From: a virus
Lineage: Duplodnaviria > Heunggongvirae > Uroviricota > Caudoviricetes
IMG/VR virus record: IMGVR_UViG_2547132415_000023
Strand: one strand, 5' to 3'
DNA: 29,605 bases
Shown: one piece after another, positions 4,514 to 15,951 of the stretch
Layout of the letters: every line of letters starts with the position of its first letter
Position numbering within the stretch: position 1 is the first letter of the stretch
Made by a program: the position numbers and the translations under genes
The notes under the pieces: model-generated
Databases searched by the model: none
The model's input: only the letters and a program-made list of their open reading frames with translations
Told to the model about the DNA's origin: nothing

Positions 4514-6736
4514 TTGGCTGTTCAATTCGCTTATCCGTGGAACGTCCCACGGTCGGCAATCTCCAGCCCATACCTTACTTATGAGCAACAGCATCGCCGC
4601 GACCGTATGTTCGCGGCTTTGCTGCATGCAAAAAAGGTGCTTTCTCTCCAGCCCGACTGCGTGCGGTTAGATGTTTATCGCACTGCTGCGGTGCTGGAGC
4701 AAAATCAGGGTAGTCAACGAGCCAATGCATTTTTAATCAACTTCTGCAAAAAGGCATTGCCGCGTCTTGAAATGGTCGCAAAAAAATACGAATGCGCTGG
4801 TATCAACAGCAAGGTATCAACCGCTGTTTTTGGAAGTCATTTTGATACTCAGCAAATGCAATATCTGTCGTCACGCATGGTTAATATGGTCGCCCGATAT
4901 AACCGTCTCCCGGATATGTCGCGCGCTGATGTTGACCTGTTGGCCGCTGATATTGCTAATTTCATTCGTGGTGAACTTGCCAACATTAATGACCACGGAT
5001 TCGGCGAGCTTAAAACGCTGTACACCTGGTATATTCGTGCTGGCTTTATTTCCCTCCAATTTAACGTTATCCCACCACATTGGGAGCGGGTTGAAAAAAA
5101 ATATGTCGGTGCGGATGAAATCGCACCGGCTATCGCCAAAATGTTTAACGATGGGTGGTGGCGCGGTCGTTTGCGCCGTGTTGCAGCTACGTGGCGCGAA
5201 CACCTGCAAATTGCAGTCGGCAACGTCAGTAAGAAAAAAAACACTTACGCGAGTAAAAACTGCGTGACTGACTGGCGTGAACAAAAGCGCCGCACTCGTG
5301 AATTTCTCAAAGGTCTGGATCTCGAAGACGAAGACGGCAACCGTATCAGCCTGATTGAAAAATATGATGGCTCAGTTGCTAACCCTGCGATTCGCCGCTG
5401 TGAGCTCATGACCCGCATTCGTGGGTTTGAAAACATCTGTAATGAGCTCGGTTATGTCGGTGAGTTTTACACTCTAACCGCGCCGTCAAAATATCACGCC
5501 ACGACTAAAGCCGGTTACCGTAACAGCAAATGGAGCGGTGCCAGCCCGGCTGACACGCAAAACTATCTAACCGGTATCTGGGCGCGTATCCGTGCCAAAC
5601 TACATCGGGAAGATGTCCGTATTTTCGGTATTCGTGTCGCCGAGCCTCATCACGACGGCACTCCACACTGGCACATGCTGATGTTCATGCTGCCGGAAGA
5701 TGTTGAATATGTTCGCTCCATCGTCCGTAAATACGCATGGAAAGAAGACCGCCACGAACTGAAAAGCGATAAATCCAAAAAAGCACGTTTCCACGCCGAG
5801 TCCATTGACCCGGAGAAAGGCAGCGCAACCGGCTATGTTGCTAAATACATCTCAAAAAATATCGACGGTTATGCTCTCGATGGTGAAACCGATGATGAAA
5901 GCGGTGAGCTGCTGAAAGAGACAGCCCCCGCCGTTTCAGCATGGGCTGCGCGCTGGCACATCCGTCAGTTTCAGTTTATTGGTGGTGCGCCGGTGACGGT
6001 TTACCGTGAGTTGCGTCGCCTCGCTGATACCGAAACCGCGCACGGTCTGAGCGTTGAGTTTGCCGCCGTCCATGATGCCGCCGACGCTGGTGACTGGGCT
6101 GGTTATGTTAATGCTCAGGGTGGGCCGTTTGTCCGTCGCGATGATTTACAGGTGCGCACACTGTATGAACCGCGTACCGAGCTTAATCAGTACGGTGAGG
6201 AAACGGTATGTATTAAGGGGGTCTACGATTCCTCCATAGGTGCAGGAAGCCCGATTTTAACCCGGCTCACTCAGTGGAAGATTGTTCCGAAGCGTGCTGT
6301 TGATTTGGCCGTTGACCTTCAGGACGGCAAAGCCGTCCCTCGGAGTTCTGTCAATAACTGTACGGGAAGCGAAAGCGATCCACCGATACTGGATTTAACA
6401 AAACCACTGAGTCGGCGTGAAAGACGAGAATTGACCAACCGACTCAGGAAGCAAAAGCCAGCAGCACGGCGAAAATTCATCCACGGAACGGATGAGCAAA
6501 ACGCAGCTATAGCTAAAACTATCGACGAGATACATCTGACAACCGGCATTAATATCAGCCGGGGCGAAGCCCTGCACCTGATGGCCGGTGGTAAAAGTTG
6601 TTTTGATGGTAAATGGCTACGCGGAACGGCCAAAGGAGAAATATTTTCCGCAGCACCATCGCATGAGGCTAAAGCTCGGAAAATCCTTAATCGTGTTGCG
6701 GCGATGGCTGAAGCATCAAAACCAATACATGAGTAA
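4514..6736 (+). CDS. A: Replication initiation endonuclease gpA (rolling-circle initiator)
   Basis: 740 aa. HxH metal motif region EPHHDGTPHWHMLMF and catalytic-tyrosine region GYVAKYISKNIDGYA are typical of P2/186 A proteins. Position after the early genes fits. Confidence 0.9.
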   Translation: MAVQFAYPWNVPRSAISSPYLTYEQQHRRDRMFAALLHAKKVLSLQPDCVRLDVYRTAAVLEQNQGSQRANAFLINFCKKALPRLEMVAKKYECAGINSKVSTAVFGSHFDTQQMQYLSSRMVNMVARYNRLPDMSRADVDLLAADIANFIRGELANINDHGFGELKTLYTWYIRAGFISLQFNVIPPHWERVEKKYVGADEIAPAIAKMFNDGWWRGRLRRVAATWREHLQIAVGNVSKKKNTYASKNCVTDWREQKRRTREFLKGLDLEDEDGNRISLIEKYDGSVANPAIRRCELMTRIRGFENICNELGYVGEFYTLTAPSKYHATTKAGYRNSKWSGASPADTQNYLTGIWARIRAKLHREDVRIFGIRVAEPHHDGTPHWHMLMFMLPEDVEYVRSIVRKYAWKEDRHELKSDKSKKARFHAESIDPEKGSATGYVAKYISKNIDGYALDGETDDESGELLKETAPAVSAWAARWHIRQFQFIGGAPVTVYRELRRLADTETAHGLSVEFAAVHDAADAGDWAGYVNAQGGPFVRRDDLQVRTLYEPRTELNQYGEETVCIKGVYDSSIGAGSPILTRLTQWKIVPKRAVDLAVDLQDGKAVPRSSVNNCTGSESDPPILDLTKPLSRRERRELTNRLRKQKPAARRKFIHGTDEQNAAIAKTIDEIHLTTGINISRGEALHLMAGGKSCFDGKWLRGTAKGEIFSAAPSHEAKARKILNRVAAMAEASKPIHE

Positions 6737-6849: not shown

Positions 6850-7032
6850 ATGGTTGGCGAACATTTCAGCCGAACGCAGCAAAAGTGGGCTTGTGTGCAA
6901 TTTATTGCCGAGGTATCTCTGATTGCAAACTGCAAGCCATCAGACTTAAAGCTCGCGCTCACTCTCATTGCAGACCTAGCAAACAGCGAAAATAACGAAA
7001 CCGAAGATGATAATTTTTATAAGGCTGATTAG
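6850..7032 (+). CDS. SOS-controlled small protein, candidate Tum-like antirepressor N-terminal part
   Basis: 60 aa ORF directly behind the LexA box with a strong RBS. Ends at TAG 7030-7032, in frame with the following DinI-like ORF. Confidence 0.5.
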   Translation: MVGEHFSRTQQKWACVQFIAEVSLIANCKPSDLKLALTLIADLANSENNETEDDNFYKAD

Positions 7033-7035
7033 ATT

Positions 7036-7266
7036 ATGAGAATCAATATCACGTTGGATAAAGAGCAAAAATTAGGGCAACAGATCATTGATGCTTTTCA
7101 GAATGAAATAACACATCGAGTACAATGCGTTTTTCCTGCAACAAAAGTTAACGTTAAGAAAGGGTCAATGACTAGTGTAGAGGCTATCGGATTCGATAAA
7201 GAGACGGACAGAGAAACATTAGGCAGCATATTACAAGAGATTTGGGAAGACGATAGCTGGCGTTAA
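7036..7266 (+). CDS. DinI-family protein
   Basis: 76 aa: MRINITLDK...IIDAF..EITHRVQCVFP...ILQEIWEDDSW matches the DinI pattern (MRIEVTI...RRIQYAFP...ILQETWE..DDW). Same frame as the preceding ORF. Confidence 0.75.
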   Translation: MRINITLDKEQKLGQQIIDAFQNEITHRVQCVFPATKVNVKKGSMTSVEAIGFDKETDRETLGSILQEIWEDDSWR

Positions 7267-7308
7267 ACATAATAACCGTGCTGGCGCAAAAACTAGCTTT
7301 TTGCGTCG

Positions 7309-7349
7309 GCGGGGTTGAGTAACGAGCCCACGAGGCTTAAGTCCTGCCT
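7309..7349. repeat. Imperfect ~40-bp direct repeat, copy 1
   Basis: GGCGGGGTTGAGTAACGAGCCCACGAGGC... compared with GGCGGGGTTGAACAACGAGCTACGCGAGGC... at 7711; each follows a small hairpin placed just after a stop codon. Confidence 0.45.
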
Positions 7350-7465
7350 TTCAAAATTTCTCAATGTGCTATTAATGACACGCCCATGATTAATGAGGCA
7401 TGACCTGAGATGGTTTTATAGTGGCGTTTTGACGGCACTGATTAAAATTCATTGAGGGCGATAAT

Positions 7466-7693
7466 ATGCATCGACTATCAGGTGAAATTCCGCATCACAA
7501 AACCAAAAGCATCAAACTGATGGCCATCGTTCATCGTCTGCAGCAGATAATGGTCAATGAGAATTTGACACCCACAGAGCTGGTCGGGTGTGCCGAAATA
7601 GTCAGGGATAATTACGGCAAGCTGGATAGCATCAGCAGGCCGATACAATACGCCCCCCACCACGTCGACGATAGCAAACGTCGTCAGCGCTGA
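7466..7693 (+). CDS. Hypothetical small protein
   Basis: 75 aa ORF with GAGGGCG RBS, bracketed by the two ~40-bp direct repeats. No recognisable motif. Confidence 0.35.
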   Translation: MHRLSGEIPHHKTKSIKLMAIVHRLQQIMVNENLTPTELVGCAEIVRDNYGKLDSISRPIQYAPHHVDDSKRRQR

Positions 7694-7710
7694 AACTTGT
7701 TTTCAGGGCT

Positions 7711-7752
7711 GGCGGGGTTGAACAACGAGCTACGCGAGGCGTTAGCCCGCCC
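7711..7752. repeat. Imperfect ~40-bp direct repeat, copy 2
   Basis: See copy 1; about 80% identical over ~40 bp. Confidence 0.45.
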
Positions 7753-7956
7753 CGTAGAGACCGCTCCAAACCGTCGCCCTGAATGCCGGTTTTTTTATGT
7801 CATTTTCCCGCGATTTCCCCGTTTTTTAGCCGTGCATGCATCAGGTGCATGGTTTTGCATGCGTCAGTCTTGCCCCTTCTGTCCGTGCGCCGCCAGAGCT
7901 GGCGCGGATCCAGAGTTGTCATGCAACTGCATTAAAACCGACCCATAAAGCGGGCA

Positions 7957-7975
7957 GGCGTGGCGGGGAAAGCAT
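7957..7975 (+). other. cos site (19-nt cohesive-end sequence) of a P2/186-type phage
   Basis: GGCGTGGCGGGGAAAGCAT followed by TGCGCGC matches my recollection of the P2/186 cohesive ends (P2 GGCGAGGCGGGGAAAGCAC). Orientation agrees with a leftward portal gene to its right. Confidence 0.55.
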
Positions 7976-8239
7976 TGCGCGCAACGAACAAAAATGATTT
8001 TTGGAACTTTGATTGTTTTGGCAACGTTGTCTTAATGTAGTTGATGTCTAATGACTTATGTGCTGTCATAGCGGCAATAGCTTGTATGACTCTTATCGAT
8101 AGACTAATTAAATTATATAAATCAGATTACTAATGTGCTAAAGCGATTATAAGACTAACTCCATCATAAATTAAAGAATTAAGTTAGTCTGTTAAAATAG
8201 GTGAATTGAGAGAAAGTAATTTATAAATTAGGAGGAAAT

Positions 8240-9568
8240 ATGAATTGTAATGAACTTTTTTATTCCGCTGACAACCATGCATTAACGTTGCATGAAAGAA
8301 CAAAGTTATCTACGGTTGTTTTAGATAAAGGCATTACAAAAAAGAATGAATTAATAGAGTTTTTGAGAGAGGAATTAAAAGGGTCATTTGGTTGCGACGT
8401 TAAGTTTTGGTTGCAAGGATCATACAAAAGTCACACTCTCATTAAGCCTGTTGATAAGTTTTCTTCATATGATATTGATGTGGGCATTTATTTGTTCTTT
8501 GATGCAGAGGCTGAAGAGATTAATTCAAAGGATGTAAAGGATACGTTGAAAGATGCTTTACTATCTTACTGCGAAATAAATAACGAGGCGAAGATTCAGG
8601 AGTCAAAGAATGCGTGTGAGGGATTAATATTCTCCTCCTTTCTTACAATCGACACCCCTATCTATTATAAAACAACGACAAAAGTAAAACTTGCAACAGA
8701 TAAAGGTTGGAGTGATAGCGATCCAAAAGCTATACAAGACTGGTTAACAAATTCACATGCTACAAAACCAGCTAGAGCATTAATGAAACGGCTCGTCCGT
8801 TACTTTAAAGCATGGGTTAATGTACAGTGGCACGGTACTTCATTTAAAAAAATACCTTCGTTAGCGATAAATGTCCTAGTTGCTAATAACTTAAGTATCC
8901 ATGATAGAGAGGACGATTGTTTTATATATACAGTGTTAGCTATTTGTGAGCAATTAGAGCGCTCAATGGAAGTAGAGAATCCTCTTAATGGCACCAATTT
9001 GCTTGCGATGCCTGATGATGCTTTAACTTTCGCGCATCAAAAGCTTCAACAATTGAAGAAAGTTTGTATAGATTGTATAGATGCCAACGAAAATGAAAGG
9101 AATATAAATTTTTCTAATTTATTCCAACATTATTTCCCTCAGGTAACGATCGTATCAAACGGAGGGGGAACTGGTCTGCCAGCGATTACTACAACCCCAG
9201 AAATATCTGTCTGTCGTTATGATAAACATGGTTCCCACATTGAAACTGTCTTAACGGATCAGTTAACGGTTGATAAAGGTGACTCATTAACATTCACCAT
9301 TTGTAATCCTGGGGCTTTTAGCCCTTATGCTCAGACGAAATGGACGGTTAGAAATGTTGGTAGCCAAGCTAATGATGCCAATGATATAGGGCACATTGAA
9401 TATGGAAAACCCAACGAAAGTCATAAACGGGGAACGTCTTATACTGGCTCGCATACGATGGAATGTATGGTTACTTACAATGGCGCTGTTTTAGGTTTAA
9501 AAGTTATTCAAGTTATAGTACGGCCTGCAATTTCTGTTAAAAGACCTATTAGAAAGTTTTGGAGATGA
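8240..9568 (+). CDS. cGAS/DncV-like (SMODS-type) nucleotidyltransferase with C-terminal extension; candidate signal synthase of a defence module
   Basis: 442 aa, strong RBS AGGAGG at 8231-8236. Pol-beta NTase signature G60-S61 ... D78-I-D80 (QGSYKSHTLIKPVDKFSSYDIDVGIYLF), with further acidic residues downstream. About 140 C-terminal residues are Gly/Thr/Ser-rich and beta-like with no recognised match. Low-GC gene. Confidence 0.7.
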   Translation: MNCNELFYSADNHALTLHERTKLSTVVLDKGITKKNELIEFLREELKGSFGCDVKFWLQGSYKSHTLIKPVDKFSSYDIDVGIYLFFDAEAEEINSKDVKDTLKDALLSYCEINNEAKIQESKNACEGLIFSSFLTIDTPIYYKTTTKVKLATDKGWSDSDPKAIQDWLTNSHATKPARALMKRLVRYFKAWVNVQWHGTSFKKIPSLAINVLVANNLSIHDREDDCFIYTVLAICEQLERSMEVENPLNGTNLLAMPDDALTFAHQKLQQLKKVCIDCIDANENERNINFSNLFQHYFPQVTIVSNGGGTGLPAITTTPEISVCRYDKHGSHIETVLTDQLTVDKGDSLTFTICNPGAFSPYAQTKWTVRNVGSQANDANDIGHIEYGKPNESHKRGTSYTGSHTMECMVTYNGAVLGLKVIQVIVRPAISVKRPIRKFWR

Positions 9569-9572
9569 TAGT

Positions 9573-10151
9573 ATGTGGGAACTAATGCCACCAAAAGCTA
9601 AATACGGCTTATCAATTGGAATTTCTATTCTTATCTTCCTTATGTATAAGGAATGTTTTAAGTTTCCTTTTGCTAGATCTATCTCCTTTACGATCAGTAC
9701 CATTACCATCCTTGCTTGGTTATTTGGAAAGTATTTATGGAAATATATTTATTTTGGTATCTTTAAACGGAATTTTTGCCCAGATTTTAATGGCACGTGG
9801 ACGGCTACGATAAAATCAAATTTTAGCCCGAATACTCAGGTTGAATTTCCATTAAAGATAGAGGCTAATTTCTTCTCTGTTAAGATGACAGGCAATACCA
9901 CTATCGGAAGAACCTACACAAATCTATGTAAAATTGTTCGTGCAGAAGATGATAGTTTCGAGTTGGTATATATGTTTAGAGTTATGAATGACTCTCCATC
10001 TGATTCTGATGCTGTTTTCTATGAAGGGGCGGCGAGGTTACGTGTAGTTGACATTGACTCTATGCAAATGATAGGGGTCTTTTGGACAAATCGATGTTGG
10101 CAAAATAATTTAAACACTGCTGGTTCTATAACTTTAACGAAACAGAGTTAG
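9573..10151 (+). CDS. Small membrane effector candidate: two N-terminal TM helices plus beta-rich C-terminal domain (Cap15-like)
   Basis: 192 aa, starts 4 nt after the NTase stop with its own GGAG RBS. Hydrophobic segments LSIGISILIFLMY (~13-25) and ISFTISTITILAWLF (~37-51); the C-terminal ~130 aa shows alternating hydrophobic patterns suggesting beta strands. Confidence 0.65.
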   Translation: MWELMPPKAKYGLSIGISILIFLMYKECFKFPFARSISFTISTITILAWLFGKYLWKYIYFGIFKRNFCPDFNGTWTATIKSNFSPNTQVEFPLKIEANFFSVKMTGNTTIGRTYTNLCKIVRAEDDSFELVYMFRVMNDSPSDSDAVFYEGAARLRVVDIDSMQMIGVFWTNRCWQNNLNTAGSITLTKQS

Positions 10152-10207
10152 CTTTCATTAATTTCAATCCTACTTTTCTTGGGTCAGGATTAACAGACTC
10201 TGTCAGA

Positions 10208-10238
10208 GTTGGTACGTACCATTTAGTTGGTACGTACC
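10208..10238. repeat. Tandem pair of 10-bp perfect palindromes (GTTGGTACGTACC x2)
   Basis: GTTGGTACGTACC at 10208-10220 and 10226-10238, each containing GGTACGTACC; adjacent CTCTG-T-CAGAG inverted repeat at ~10198-10208. In the convergent gap between the 2TM gene and portal gene ends. Confidence 0.5.
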
Positions 10239-10245
10239 CTATCAT

Positions 10246-11262
10246 CTAATCCTCGTCAATACTGTAATCCTTGAAGCGGACCACTTCCATTCCCAGCCAG
10301 TCATTAATTTCTTTAAATCGCTCCTGCAACGGTGTCAGCTCATTACGTACGAACACCTTTGCCACCTTCTCAACATCACCGAGCGACGCGATGTTTTCAG
10401 GCTTGCCCCCCATTAGCTGGAACGGCACGCGGTGTGCATCGAGCAGGTCAGCGGCGCTCACCTTTTTAATGTTAAAGAAATCATCTTTCGTCGCGACCTC
10501 ACTCAAAGGCACGATCTTGATGCCGTCGGGTTTACCGTTTGGCGCATAGAAAAACAGGTTTTTAAAATTCCCTAGTCCTTTTGAGTCACGCATGGCCGAG
10601 CGCAGCGCATCAACATCCGTGCTGCTTTGTGCCGCATCGGTCACATACATGATGTAACCCGCATGCGCCCCGTTCTGGTAATACTTGCGACGAAAAAGCG
10701 TGGCGGATTCATTCAGCCACGCGGAATTGAGTGCGCTCAGGTATTCCGGCATGCCATAAAGCTCCTGATTGATGTCAGGCTCCAGCAGGTGAAACACCGA
10801 GCCGGGTGCGAACTGGTGCGGGTTGTTAAAACTCGAAATGTACCAGTAAACTCCATCCTCAACGCCACGACGGGTATATTTAGCAGGTGATGTTTCCAGT
10901 TTTATAAGCTGGCCGGTGACGCTCATGCGCTTCTCAAGATAGCCGTTGGCAAAGACCAGATAATCCAGTACGAGGCGGCTGAAATCCTGACGTGACAGCA
11001 GCGGGTGCGGGATGTAGGTACTCGCCAGAATGTTACGTTTCACGTAAATCGGCGAGCTGTGATGAACGGCGGCGCGCAGGCTTTTTGCCAGACCAGAGAA
11101 GTTGACCGGCGGCTCGTACCACTTACCGTTATTGATGCACTCGACATAATCGAGGATATCGCGACGATCCAGAACGGCAGAGGGCTCGCCAAAGGTGAAC
11201 GCCTCCATTTTTTGCGGTGCGCTAACGGTCGTTGTGGTGGGTATCTTCAGTTGCTTTTTCAT
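10246..11262 (-). CDS. Q: Portal protein gpQ
   Basis: 338 aa, size and position (leftward, next to cos, preceding P) match P2 Q. Confidence 0.9.
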   Translation of the reverse strand: MKKQLKIPTTTTVSAPQKMEAFTFGEPSAVLDRRDILDYVECINNGKWYEPPVNFSGLAKSLRAAVHHSSPIYVKRNILASTYIPHPLLSRQDFSRLVLDYLVFANGYLEKRMSVTGQLIKLETSPAKYTRRGVEDGVYWYISSFNNPHQFAPGSVFHLLEPDINQELYGMPEYLSALNSAWLNESATLFRRKYYQNGAHAGYIMYVTDAAQSSTDVDALRSAMRDSKGLGNFKNLFFYAPNGKPDGIKIVPLSEVATKDDFFNIKKVSAADLLDAHRVPFQLMGGKPENIASLGDVEKVAKVFVRNELTPLQERFKEINDWLGMEVVRFKDYSIDED

Positions 11263-11263
11263 G

Positions 11264-13033
11264 TCAGTTAATATCCAGAATTGTCGTTGAATGCATGCCG
11301 CTACCGGCGGAAAGAGGTTCGTTTAACAGGGCGTGCATGGTCGCCCATGCGATATCGGCGTGACTGGCTTCCTCGGTACGGCAGGCCTCGTAGGTGGCGC
11401 TGCGCCCGCTGCTGGTCATGGTTTTGCGAATCGACATAAACGACTGCGTGACGTCGGTCGCCCCGGCGTCGTACTCCAGGCAGCCGCGGCGAATGGTGTC
11501 TTTCGCCTTGAGCACCATTGCGGTTTTCATTTCAGGGGTGTAACGGATGCCGCGTGCAGCCGGGTAGAATGAGCGCACCAACTGGAATACGCCGAGGCCG
11601 AGGCCGGTTGCGTCAATGCCGATGTATTCGACGTTGTATTTCTCGGTCAGTTTGCGGATGCCCTCAGCCTGAGCGGCAAAGTCCATGCCTTTCCACTGGT
11701 GGCGCTCCAGCATGCGGAACTTGCCACCAGAGACCACTGGCGGCGCGAGCACGACGCACCCGGCACTGTCGCCGGTGTGTGACGGGTCGTAGCCAATCCA
11801 GACAGGACGAGAGCCGAACGGATGGTCGGCGAACGGGGCAAAGTCCTCCCATTCCTCCATCACATCGACCATGCAGCGCTGCAGCTCCTCGAACGGGAAT
11901 ACCGACGCTTTATCGTCGACAAACTCGCACATAAACAGGTTCTTAAAGTCCTCATCACTGTTTTCGCGTTTGAGCTGGTCGAGGTCGAACAGGGTGCAGC
12001 CACCCGCAAGGGCGTCCTCAATGGTGACAATCTGCCGCCACTGGCCATCGTCGCAGAGCTGGCCACCGGCGAGCGCGCTGTGACTGATGTCGATTTCGAT
12101 GCGGTCGGCAATCCGGCTGCGCCCCTTGTTGAACAGCTCGCCAGACCAGAAGGGGTAAGCACCGTGCGCCAGCGTGGAAGGTGTCGAAAAATAGGTCGAG
12201 CGCAGGTGCTTTTGCGAGGCCATGCCCGAGGCGACTTTGCGCAGTTTCTGAAAATTCGGGATCCAGAATATTTCATCGACATACAGGTCGCCGTTATGGC
12301 TCTGCGCGGTGTTGGAATTGGTACCGAGAAAAATCAGTTTTGCGCCGTTGTTACCAATGGCAATCGGGTCGCCGGTCAGGTCAACGTCGACCAATCGCGC
12401 AAACTGGATGATGTATTCGCGGAACACGTAAGCCTGCGTTTTACTGGCTGATAAAAATATCTGGTTATGGCCGGTTTTGAGTGCGCGCAGCAGTGCCTCG
12501 CGGGAGAAATAGAACGTCGCGCCAATCTGGCGGGATTTGAGAATGTCACGAATACGGTGCTCCAGTCCTGCGCGGTACCACTGCAACTGGTACTCGAAAG
12601 ACTGGTCGAAAAATAATTCCTCCAGTTTCTCGATAGCCTCGTCGCTGAAAAAATTCTTTTTCGGCTTTTTGCGCTCCCCTTTGTTGCGGTTGGCGACGTT
12701 GGGGTTAAGGTCGGCCTCGTTGCCGGTCTGGCTGTAGCGGTTGACGCGCGCCAGCCGTTCAATCTGCCGTCCGAGCAGGTCAATCTCTTTGAAATCGCCG
12801 CCTGTCTTTTGCGGCTTGGCGATGAGCTGAATCAGCCTAGCCTCAAGGCTGCTTTCAACGCGGGAAATCGGCGCGATGCCGTCCCAGCCGTCGCGCTGCT
12901 TCCAGCTCTGCACGGTCGGGCGCTTGACCTGCAGCATTTCGGCAATCTGTGGCACGGAAAAACCCTGCCAGTAAAGCAGCGATGCCTGCCGTCGCGGGTC
13001 ATGCAACAAGGTTGTATCGGTGGAAATGGTCAT
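11264..13033 (-). CDS. P: Terminase large (ATPase) subunit gpP
   Basis: 589 aa, leftward, directly upstream of Q with a 1-nt gap; size matches P2 P (~590 aa). Confidence 0.9.
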   Translation of the reverse strand: MTISTDTTLLHDPRRQASLLYWQGFSVPQIAEMLQVKRPTVQSWKQRDGWDGIAPISRVESSLEARLIQLIAKPQKTGGDFKEIDLLGRQIERLARVNRYSQTGNEADLNPNVANRNKGERKKPKKNFFSDEAIEKLEELFFDQSFEYQLQWYRAGLEHRIRDILKSRQIGATFYFSREALLRALKTGHNQIFLSASKTQAYVFREYIIQFARLVDVDLTGDPIAIGNNGAKLIFLGTNSNTAQSHNGDLYVDEIFWIPNFQKLRKVASGMASQKHLRSTYFSTPSTLAHGAYPFWSGELFNKGRSRIADRIEIDISHSALAGGQLCDDGQWRQIVTIEDALAGGCTLFDLDQLKRENSDEDFKNLFMCEFVDDKASVFPFEELQRCMVDVMEEWEDFAPFADHPFGSRPVWIGYDPSHTGDSAGCVVLAPPVVSGGKFRMLERHQWKGMDFAAQAEGIRKLTEKYNVEYIGIDATGLGLGVFQLVRSFYPAARGIRYTPEMKTAMVLKAKDTIRRGCLEYDAGATDVTQSFMSIRKTMTSSGRSATYEACRTEEASHADIAWATMHALLNEPLSAGSGMHSTTILDIN

Positions 13034-14129: not shown

Positions 14130-15197
14130 ATGCGCCCGGAAACCCGTTTTAAGTTCAATGCCTATCTGACCCGCGTCGCTGAGCTGAACGGCATCAGCAC
14201 TGATGACGTCAGTAAAAAATTCACCGTCGAGCCGTCCGTCACGCAAACGCTGATGAACAAAGTGCAGGAGTCATCCGCGTTTCTGCAGACGATTAACATT
14301 CTGCCGGTCGCAGAAATGAAGGGTGAGAAAATCGGCGTCGGTGTGACCGGTACTATCGCCAGCACGACCGACACCTCGGGCGATGATGAGCGTAAGACCG
14401 CAGACTTCACCGCGCTTGAGTCCAACAAGTACGAGTGCGACCAGATTAACTTTGACTTCCATCTGAAATATAAAACCCTCGACCTGTGGGCGCGTTTTCA
14501 GGACTTTCAGCGCCGCATCCGTGACGCCATTGTTAAGCGTCAGGCGCTCGATTTCATCATGGCCGGTTTTAACGGTACCACCCGCGCCGCCACCTCTGAC
14601 CGCACCAAAAATCCGATGCTGCAGGATGTAGCCGTCGGCTGGCTGCAGAAATACCGCAACGAAGCCCCGACGCGTGTGATGAGCAATATCACCGATGCTG
14701 ACGGTAAGGTCGTTTCGGCAGTGATTCGCGTCGGTAAAAACGGCGACTATGAGAACCTCGACGCGCTGGTGATGGATGCTACCAACAACCTGATTGACGA
14801 GGTTTATCAGGATGACCCGAAACTCGTTGCCATCGTTGGCCGTAAGCTGCTGGCCGACAAATATTTCCCGCTGGTGAACAAGCCGCAAGAAAACAGCGAA
14901 GCGCTCGCGGCAGATATCATCATCAGCCAGAAGCGAATCGGCAACCTGCCTGCTGTGCGTGTGCCGTACTTCCCGGCGAATGCCGTGTTAGTGACAACGC
15001 TGGAAAACCTCTCTATCTATTTCATGGATGAGAGCCACCGCCGCAGCATTGATGAAAACCCGAAAAAAGACCGCGTGGAAAACTACGAGTCAATGAATAT
15101 CGACTATGTGGTCGAGGCGTATGCCGCCGGGTGTCTGCTGGAAAACATCACCCTGGGCGATTTCACCGCACCTGCAGCACCGGAAAGCGGAGAGTAA
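14130..15197 (+). CDS. N: Major capsid protein gpN
   Basis: 355 aa after O; size and position match P2 N. Confidence 0.9.
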   Translation: MRPETRFKFNAYLTRVAELNGISTDDVSKKFTVEPSVTQTLMNKVQESSAFLQTINILPVAEMKGEKIGVGVTGTIASTTDTSGDDERKTADFTALESNKYECDQINFDFHLKYKTLDLWARFQDFQRRIRDAIVKRQALDFIMAGFNGTTRAATSDRTKNPMLQDVAVGWLQKYRNEAPTRVMSNITDADGKVVSAVIRVGKNGDYENLDALVMDATNNLIDEVYQDDPKLVAIVGRKLLADKYFPLVNKPQENSEALAADIIISQKRIGNLPAVRVPYFPANAVLVTTLENLSIYFMDESHRRSIDENPKKDRVENYESMNIDYVVEAYAAGCLLENITLGDFTAPAAPESGE

Positions 15198-15201
15198 GCC
15201 C

Positions 15202-15951
15202 ATGACGAGCCCCGCACAGCGTCACATGATGCGGGTCTCGGCCTCTCAAGCCGCGCAGCGGGAACAAGCCCCGCTGCGCCATGCAACCGCCTACGAGCAG
15301 ATGCTGGTAAAGCTGGCCGATGACCGCCGCACGTTGAAAACCATCCGTTCAAACGAACTGAAAGCCGCGAAAAAGCGTGAGCTGCTGCCGTTCTATGCGC
15401 CGTGGGTCGCCGGTGTGCTGGCTGATGGCCGTGGTGCGCAGGATGACATTCTGATGACAGTCATGCTGTGGCGTCTCGATGCCGGTGATATCGCTGGCGC
15501 GCTGGAAATTGCGCCATACGCGCTGAAGTACGGCCTCACCTCTGACTATCGCCGCACGACACCTTACATGCTGGTTGAGGAGGTGGCGCTTGCCGCGCTG
15601 CGCCTGCGCGATGCCGGTGAGCCTGTCGACCTCGCATTACTGCTGACCACCCTTAGCCTGACCGACGGCGCTGACGTTCCCGATATGGTGCGCGCTCGAC
15701 TGCATAAGGTGACCGGCCTAACCCTGCGCGATGCCGGTCAGAGCGCCGAAGCACTGGCACAGTTTCAGCGCGCGATGCAGCTCGACCGCAATGCCGGTGT
15801 GCGCAAAGAGATTGAGCGGCTGGAGCGCGCATTGAAGCCAAAGCCAGAGGCAGCATCCCGTAAAACGACTAAACCGCGCACGCGCAAACCTGCCAACAAA
15901 CCGGCGGCAAAGCGCGGGCGTCCACCAAAGGCGGTAAAAACCGCCGGTTAA
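15202..15951 (+). CDS. M: Terminase small (endonuclease) subunit gpM
   Basis: Start trimmed to ATG 15202 (MTSPAQRHMM), just after the N stop; the track ORF from 15106 would overlap N. Basic C-terminal tail KPRTRKPANKPAAKRGRPPK. Confidence 0.8.
   Translation: MTSPAQRHMMRVSASQAAQREQAPLRHATAYEQMLVKLADDRRTLKTIRSNELKAAKKRELLPFYAPWVAGVLADGRGAQDDILMTVMLWRLDAGDIAGALEIAPYALKYGLTSDYRRTTPYMLVEEVALAALRLRDAGEPVDLALLLTTLSLTDGADVPDMVRARLHKVTGLTLRDAGQSAEALAQFQRAMQLDRNAGVRKEIERLERALKPKPEAASRKTTKPRTRKPANKPAAKRGRPPKAVKTAG

Follow-up and report, generated by a model that had tools for sequence, protein, structure and literature searches.

A hairpin closing a CBASS island beside the portal gene of a P2/186-like prophage: a probable transcript-end element

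What are two identical palindromes doing between the converging 3' ends of a defence island and a phage portal gene? The stretch of DNA that raises this question (29,605 nucleotides, hereafter the window) is a P2/186-like prophage. The replication gene A (4514-6736) is followed by a DinI-like gene, and the cos cohesive-end sequence, GGCGTGGCGGGGAAAGCAT (7957..7975, plus strand), is identical to the cos of 186 and forms the left border of a variable island. This island (7980-10245, 2.2 kb, 31-39% GC vs. approximately 55% in the backbone) is a minimal type I CBASS composed of a CD-NTase (oligonucleotide cyclase, 8240..9568, plus strand) and a Cap15-like effector (2TM, 9573..10151, plus strand). 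These are its only genes, and it encodes no DNA-binding protein, recombinase or transposase. On the other side of the palindromes lie the portal gene (10246..11262, minus strand), a homologue of P2 Q and 186 W, and the large terminase gene (11264-13033, minus strand). Homology to the backbone of other P2/186-like phages resumes within the last few portal codons. The region from gpA to the portal gpQ, beside cos, is a hotspot for defence cargo in P2-like phages (Rousset et al. 2022, PMC9122126; PMC13586616). The type I CBASS island of the window lies inside the same hotspot, but on the portal side of cos. Term searches of these two articles returned no terminator, and the search of PMC13586616 returned no hairpin or inverted repeat either. 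A reading made from the sequence alone (the sequence-only reading) had placed the palindromes at the cos-Q junction; this name does not apply, because cos is 2.2 kb away.

The repeated unit is a 14-mer, AGTTGGTACGTACC, with one copy at 10207-10220 and the other at 10225-10238 (plus strand). The sequence-only reading had described identical 13-mers spaced 18 bp apart; the identity and the start-to-start spacing are correct, but the repeat is longer than reported. Each copy contains the perfect 10-bp palindrome GGTACGTACC (10211-10220 and 10229-10238), with 8 nt between one palindrome and the next. Both copies fall within the 94-bp gap between the effector stop codon (10149-10151) and the portal stop codon (10246-10248, minus strand), as had been stated, and the second copy ends 7 nt before the latter. 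Lone 10-bp palindromes are common and nothing unusual: the window has 27 of any sequence vs. approximately 29 expected at random (29,600 x 4^-5). A pair of identical 10-bp palindromes separated by 40 bp or less did not arise in any of 200 composition-preserving shuffles. No further site matching GGTACGTACC with one mismatch or fewer exists in the 29.6-kb window, and sites with up to two mismatches occur as often as expected by chance (12 vs. approximately 12).

The same gap harbours a small inverted repeat, ACTCTG-T-CAGAGT (10197..10209), which had been reported as a CTCTG/CAGAG component of the junction. It is present, but it is at chance level (approximately 0.2-1 inverted repeats of 5-6 bp are expected per gap of this size). 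It is kept in the near-identical relatives L005 and L009 only and is destroyed in L012. We excluded it from the element because it is not conserved. A second, weak stem-loop, AATCCT...AGGATT (10166..10191), is lineage-specific and was found in the window, L005 and L009 only.

Identical palindromes are complementary to each other by definition, and the two arms consequently pair into one hairpin, a point overlooked when they were first described. Its core, GGTACGTACC(A)-loop-(T)GGTACGTACC (10211..10238), has a perfect 11-bp stem with 55% GC and a 6-nt loop, and the stem sequence is the same on both strands. The folding energy is approximately -20 kcal/mol on either strand. Folding of the 121-nt junction gave z = -5.0 and -4.4, and none of 200 shuffles folded as well. 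The hairpin stands beyond both stop codons, 59 nt from that of the effector and 7 nt from that of the portal gene, as the final element of the CBASS island, at the very edge that faces the portal gene, where the sequence-only reading had located the right edge of the island.

The defining feature of intrinsic terminators, the U-tract (about five or more U in the 8 nt following the stem), is missing from both strands in the window, which speaks against a terminator. The tail of the stem is CCUAUCAUCU on the plus strand and AACUCUGACA on the minus strand, and a terminator scan did not call the site, in agreement with the earlier remark that this is not a classic terminator. Because of the missing U-tract we do not class the hairpin as a canonical intrinsic terminator, and an efficient one of the classical type is unlikely. 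None of the Rfam covariance models matched positions 7600-10600 at E ≤ 1. Integron attC sites are imperfect hairpins that contain extrahelical bases and GTTRRRY core sites and occur in the context of an integron integrase. Judged by inspection only, the stem analysed here is perfect, without bulges, and its GTTGGTA is one position off the core consensus.

Relatives were collected through homologues of the effector, and the same CBASS-portal arrangement with the twin motif was found at seven further distinct loci (L005/L008, L009, L010/L011, L012-L017, L018, L090 and L143). L009 is identical to the window across the whole junction. L010, L012, L018 and L143 have diverged from the window in the effector gene (79-84% DNA identity) and in the portal gene (84-85%), and the spacer between the effector stop codon and the hairpin (52-81 nt in length) is essentially unalignable (46-61% alignment to the window). 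Despite this, the 20 stem nucleotides are the same as in the window in L010, L018, L090 and L143 (20/20), and 19/20 are kept in L012, where the second copy is GATACGTACC. The gap between the palindromes is always 8 nt long and AT-rich, while its sequence is variable (ATTTAGTT, ATTCAGTT, TTAATTTT, ATTTAATT, AATTATTT). Moreover, the stem and the portal stop codon are exactly 7 nt apart in every relative with the same CBASS. A conserved stem in a fixed register, next to a spacer that cannot be aligned, points to purifying selection that maintains both the stem and its position relative to the portal stop codon.

This conservation bears on the simplest explanation, that the twin is chance or neutral sequence, for instance a recent and functionless tandem duplication of 18 bp. 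The units AGTTGGTACGTACCATTT and AGTTGGTACGTACCCTAT do resemble a two-copy tandem repeat. Such an origin is extremely improbable as a full account, given stems conserved at 95-100% beside a spacer aligning at 46-61% and coding DNA at 79-85% identity, the absence of a twin from the 200 shuffles, and the compensatory changes of L019 described below.

Bidirectional terminators occur at convergent gene pairs in enterobacteria. The hairpin resembles them as a single perfect stem-loop between converging 3' ends, equally stable in both transcripts. L012 even shows their A-tract/T-tract layout, with AAAAG upstream and ATAATTTTT downstream of the hairpin, and it is the only relative with T-runs on both sides. 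The window and most relatives differ from these terminators in having no flanking A- and T-tracts.

The most diverged homologous junction, L019 (effector protein 66% identical), allows pairing to be separated from palindromy. It reads AATGGCACGCAC-TTTTAAAA-GTACGTGCCATT, and neither of its arms, GGCACGCACT and AGTACGTGCC, is palindromic, yet they are still complementary to each other with one mismatch. The core stem of L019 carries two double-sided changes, from T-A to C-G and from C-G to T-A, that preserve pairing. Different complementary bases lengthen the stem outward in L010 and L019 (ATAC/GTAT and TAAT/ATTA). Over the eight sequences compared, 5 of the 14 pairs have changed on both sides, and only 1 of 500 shuffles reached the observed covariation. 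Only two stem mismatches were found, one in L012 and one in L019. Both are C.A when read on the plus strand; in the portal-sense RNA they become G.U and the two stems pair completely, which weakly suggests that the element works as RNA, namely RNA of the portal-sense strand. Structure rather than sequence as the selected feature is a suggestive reading of these changes, and it is suggestive only, because they come from eight sequences and mostly from L019.

The divergence of L019 also weighs on the proposal of the sequence-only reading that the twin is a pair of sites for a dimeric protein. In a wider form of this proposal, an operator-like pair or one long dyad site on double-stranded DNA would be bound by a dimeric or tetrameric protein of the host, the phage or a satellite, which would regulate CBASS or the late genes or act as a roadblock to converging polymerases. 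Each arm being a perfect 10-bp palindrome is in keeping with this, as are the strictly conserved length of the AT-rich 8-nt gap, whose sequence varies, and a stem that is nearly invariant across lineages with unalignable flanks. However, the arms of L019 have lost palindromy and kept complementarity, there are no additional sites beyond chance in the window, and no DNA-binding protein is encoded in the island. The site is located 3' of both genes and not at a promoter, and with other cargo the same position holds ordinary terminators. Among the papers listed for GGTACGTACC in a literature search, none was bacterial or phage work, as judged by title and abstract. We consider binding of this kind quite unlikely.

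In P2 and 186, the slot immediately after the portal gene is occupied by annotated terminators, which had also been overlooked. The 186 record (NC_001317) places the terminator tW at 164-187, 8 nt beyond the stop codon of W (portal), and the P2 record (NC_001895) places tQ, a 'putative rho-independent terminator for P operon', at 160-181, 5 nt beyond the Q stop codon. The window hairpin shares with them the slot (7 nt beyond the portal stop codon), the location where the late terminase-portal operon ends, on the side facing cos, and the stem-loop form; the stability of tQ and tW is similar or lower (approximately -16.6 kcal/mol for tW vs. approximately -20 kcal/mol in the window). By contrast, a run of T5-6 follows the stems of tQ and tW, which are GC-rich (GCCGCC/GGCGGC), whereas the window hairpin has a stem with two self-palindromic arms and 55% GC and no T-run on either strand. 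There is no sequence similarity between the window hairpin and tQ or tW, and the window hairpin belongs to the variable cargo region and not to the backbone.

The slot was then compared in 80 viral contigs (L150-L229) with portals 82-97% identical, using the first 60 nt past the portal stop codon. A stem-loop starts 1-14 nt past this codon in 77 of the 80 contigs, the exceptions being L214, L215 and L221. Among the 72 slot hairpins with a stem of at least 7 bp, 60 have no portal-sense T-run, and a hairpin without a U-tract is therefore the norm in this slot. Approximately 32 of those 60 have an A-run on the 5' side, and thus would be terminators for the opposite, incoming strand. In the commonest slot hairpin, AAAATGCCGCC-TCCG-GGCGGCA, the A-run is found on the 5' side in the portal sense. 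This hairpin therefore looks like an intrinsic terminator serving transcription that arrives from the cos side rather than the portal operon.

Different cargo has a different hairpin at the same place. In E. coli D3 (L142) it is AAGCCGCT-AACA-AGCGGCTTTT, in Cronobacter (L022) AAAAGGAGG...CCTCCTTTT, and in L145 and L232 AAAGAAGTTATGG...CCATAACTTCTTT. A search of related prophages for the motif at this junction had been recommended as a check: the motif is kept where the CBASS cargo is the same, and other cargo has other hairpins. We also considered the hairpin as part of the portal backbone and rejected this, since L150, with a portal 97% identical, has other cargo and another hairpin.

Some junctions differ in layout. 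In L007 (E. coli FDAARGOS_1253, 1531-2878), another hotspot cargo is co-directional with the portal gene and there is no hairpin past the portal stop codon; this cargo is therefore presumably co-transcribed with the late operon. Homologous CBASS are present in P2-like prophages of Cronobacter (L022 and L023) and Serratia (L024) with altered surroundings. The portal call is short in L023 (300 aa) and there is none in L022, and in L024 CBASS and the portal gene are separated by a HEPN_LA2681 gene.

Searches of larger collections showed how restricted the motif is. Strict and relaxed forms of it matched one contig among 2.9 million IMG/VR viral contigs, and this contig is the same CBASS prophage. 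In JGI metagenomes the relaxed motif gave 112 matches, of which L090 alone was relevant. Approximately 90 of the 112 belong to an unrelated dispersed repeat, GTACGTACCTCTCTAAGGATACGTAC, which is spread over many contigs of samples Ga0307508, Ga0307512 and Ga0307516 (L030-L141) and probably represents a repeat family from a different organism. When 5,426 complete E. coli genomes were queried by BLAST with the junction or the island, neither the island nor the motif was detected, and the effector had no tblastn match in 50,697 phage records. In species-representative genomes, the exact twin motif was found only in three Streptomyces and one alphaproteobacterial MAG contig, which were discarded as they differ in host group and phage context. 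The hairpin resembles REP/BIME elements in being stable, devoid of a U-tract and located 3' of genes, where it could be an exonuclease barrier. REP/BIME are dispersed in many copies, whereas the hairpin is single in the window; it does not occur in the 5,426 E. coli genomes and occurs once among the 2.9 million viral contigs.

At the portal junction, the motif was seen only alongside this CBASS cargo. Members of the same CBASS family in other contexts (60-65% identity) do not have it, and more distant CBASS homologues found elsewhere have a hairpin at their end too, with another sequence. Since it always co-occurs with this CBASS family, the hairpin could serve CBASS in some other way. In one version, it would serve the CBASS operon alone, as a 3'-UTR element stabilising or regulating its mRNA, and its proximity to the portal gene would be incidental. 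The constant company of this CBASS clade and the hairpins at the ends of the distant homologues agree with that version. The distances do not, since the effector stop codon is 52-81 nt away depending on the relative while the portal stop codon is fixed at 7 nt, nor do the two stem mismatches, which only the portal-sense RNA accommodates, as G.U. A role confined to CBASS mRNA is unlikely.

The restriction to one cargo can also be read as the signature of a recombination or insertion signal, the other proposal of the sequence-only reading. The hairpin would then be the right end of the CBASS cassette, either as the end of a mobile unit or as a structure promoting swaps of defence cargo. It is indeed the last element of the variable region before backbone homology resumes in the last few portal codons, and the mechanism by which cargo is exchanged at the P2-like hotspot is unresolved (PMC13586616). 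Nevertheless, no partner repeat or inverted copy exists at the cos-side edge (7000-10400 searched), there is no target-site duplication, the island encodes neither a transposase nor a recombinase, and the same CBASS family elsewhere does without the motif. Moreover, the fixed 7-nt register and the presence of a hairpin in this slot whatever the cargo favour a transcriptional role. We regard a recombination signal as very unlikely.

The explanation we favour, and consider probable, is that the twin palindromes are one transcript-end stem-loop occupying the tQ/tW slot, where the CBASS and late operons converge. From its structure, position and conservation, and from the covariation described above, we infer that it would act at the RNA level, ending or stabilising transcripts. 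In the window, this slot is also where the late terminase-portal transcript (minus strand) meets the CBASS operon (plus strand). As the hairpin can form in RNA from either strand, it would define or protect the 3' end of whichever transcript contains it. Rather than being an efficient intrinsic terminator, the hairpin more probably works as a pause site or a barrier to exonucleases, or ends transcripts together with Rho or with collisions between converging polymerases. In effect, the portal and terminase genes would be shielded from antisense read-through out of CBASS, and CBASS from antisense late transcription.

A hairpin does not need self-palindromic arms; these arms, together with the near-invariant stem, would also fit sequence-specific recognition. 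The arms may be a by-product of the (GTAC)2 core, or they may be functionally important. In the latter direction, GGTACGTACC-N8-GGTACGTACC as a whole could be a sequence-specific signal, such as a site where a host, phage or satellite protein binds or cleaves, or a DNA hairpin promoting exchange of defence cargo at the hotspot of P2-like phages, that travels as the right boundary of the CBASS cassette; we hold this to be improbable.

If the transcript-end explanation is correct, the CBASS cassette brings its own hairpin to the position of the annotated terminators of P2 and 186, and a CBASS operon expressed in the lysogen and the late packaging operon are insulated from mutual antisense read-through. 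This would be of use for annotating the boundaries of the hotspot and for designing constructs to clone such islands. The hairpin is a real and conserved but ordinary feature that leaves phage and CBASS biology as currently understood. Only the missing U-tract and the self-palindromic arms are unusual.

Other repeats were noted elsewhere in the window. A direct repeat of 44 nt, with copies 75% identical to each other, is located at 7284-7327 and 7687-7730. In each copy, GGCGGGGTTGA.YAACGAGC comes after a small terminator-like hairpin, and each copy is found just past a small ORF (the DinI-like gene at 7036-7266 and an ORF at 7466-7693). A cos-like 14-mer, CAGGGCTGGCGGGG, is present with its variants in four copies (7575-7588, 7704-7717, 7894-7907 and 7955-7968), the last of which overlaps the cos cohesive end; these 14-mers may be terminase recognition repeats. 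The sole other hairpin of the window with a perfect 10-bp stem, GCGCAGCGGG-AACAAGC-CCCGCTGCGC (15253-15279), lies just past the ORF at 14130-15197.
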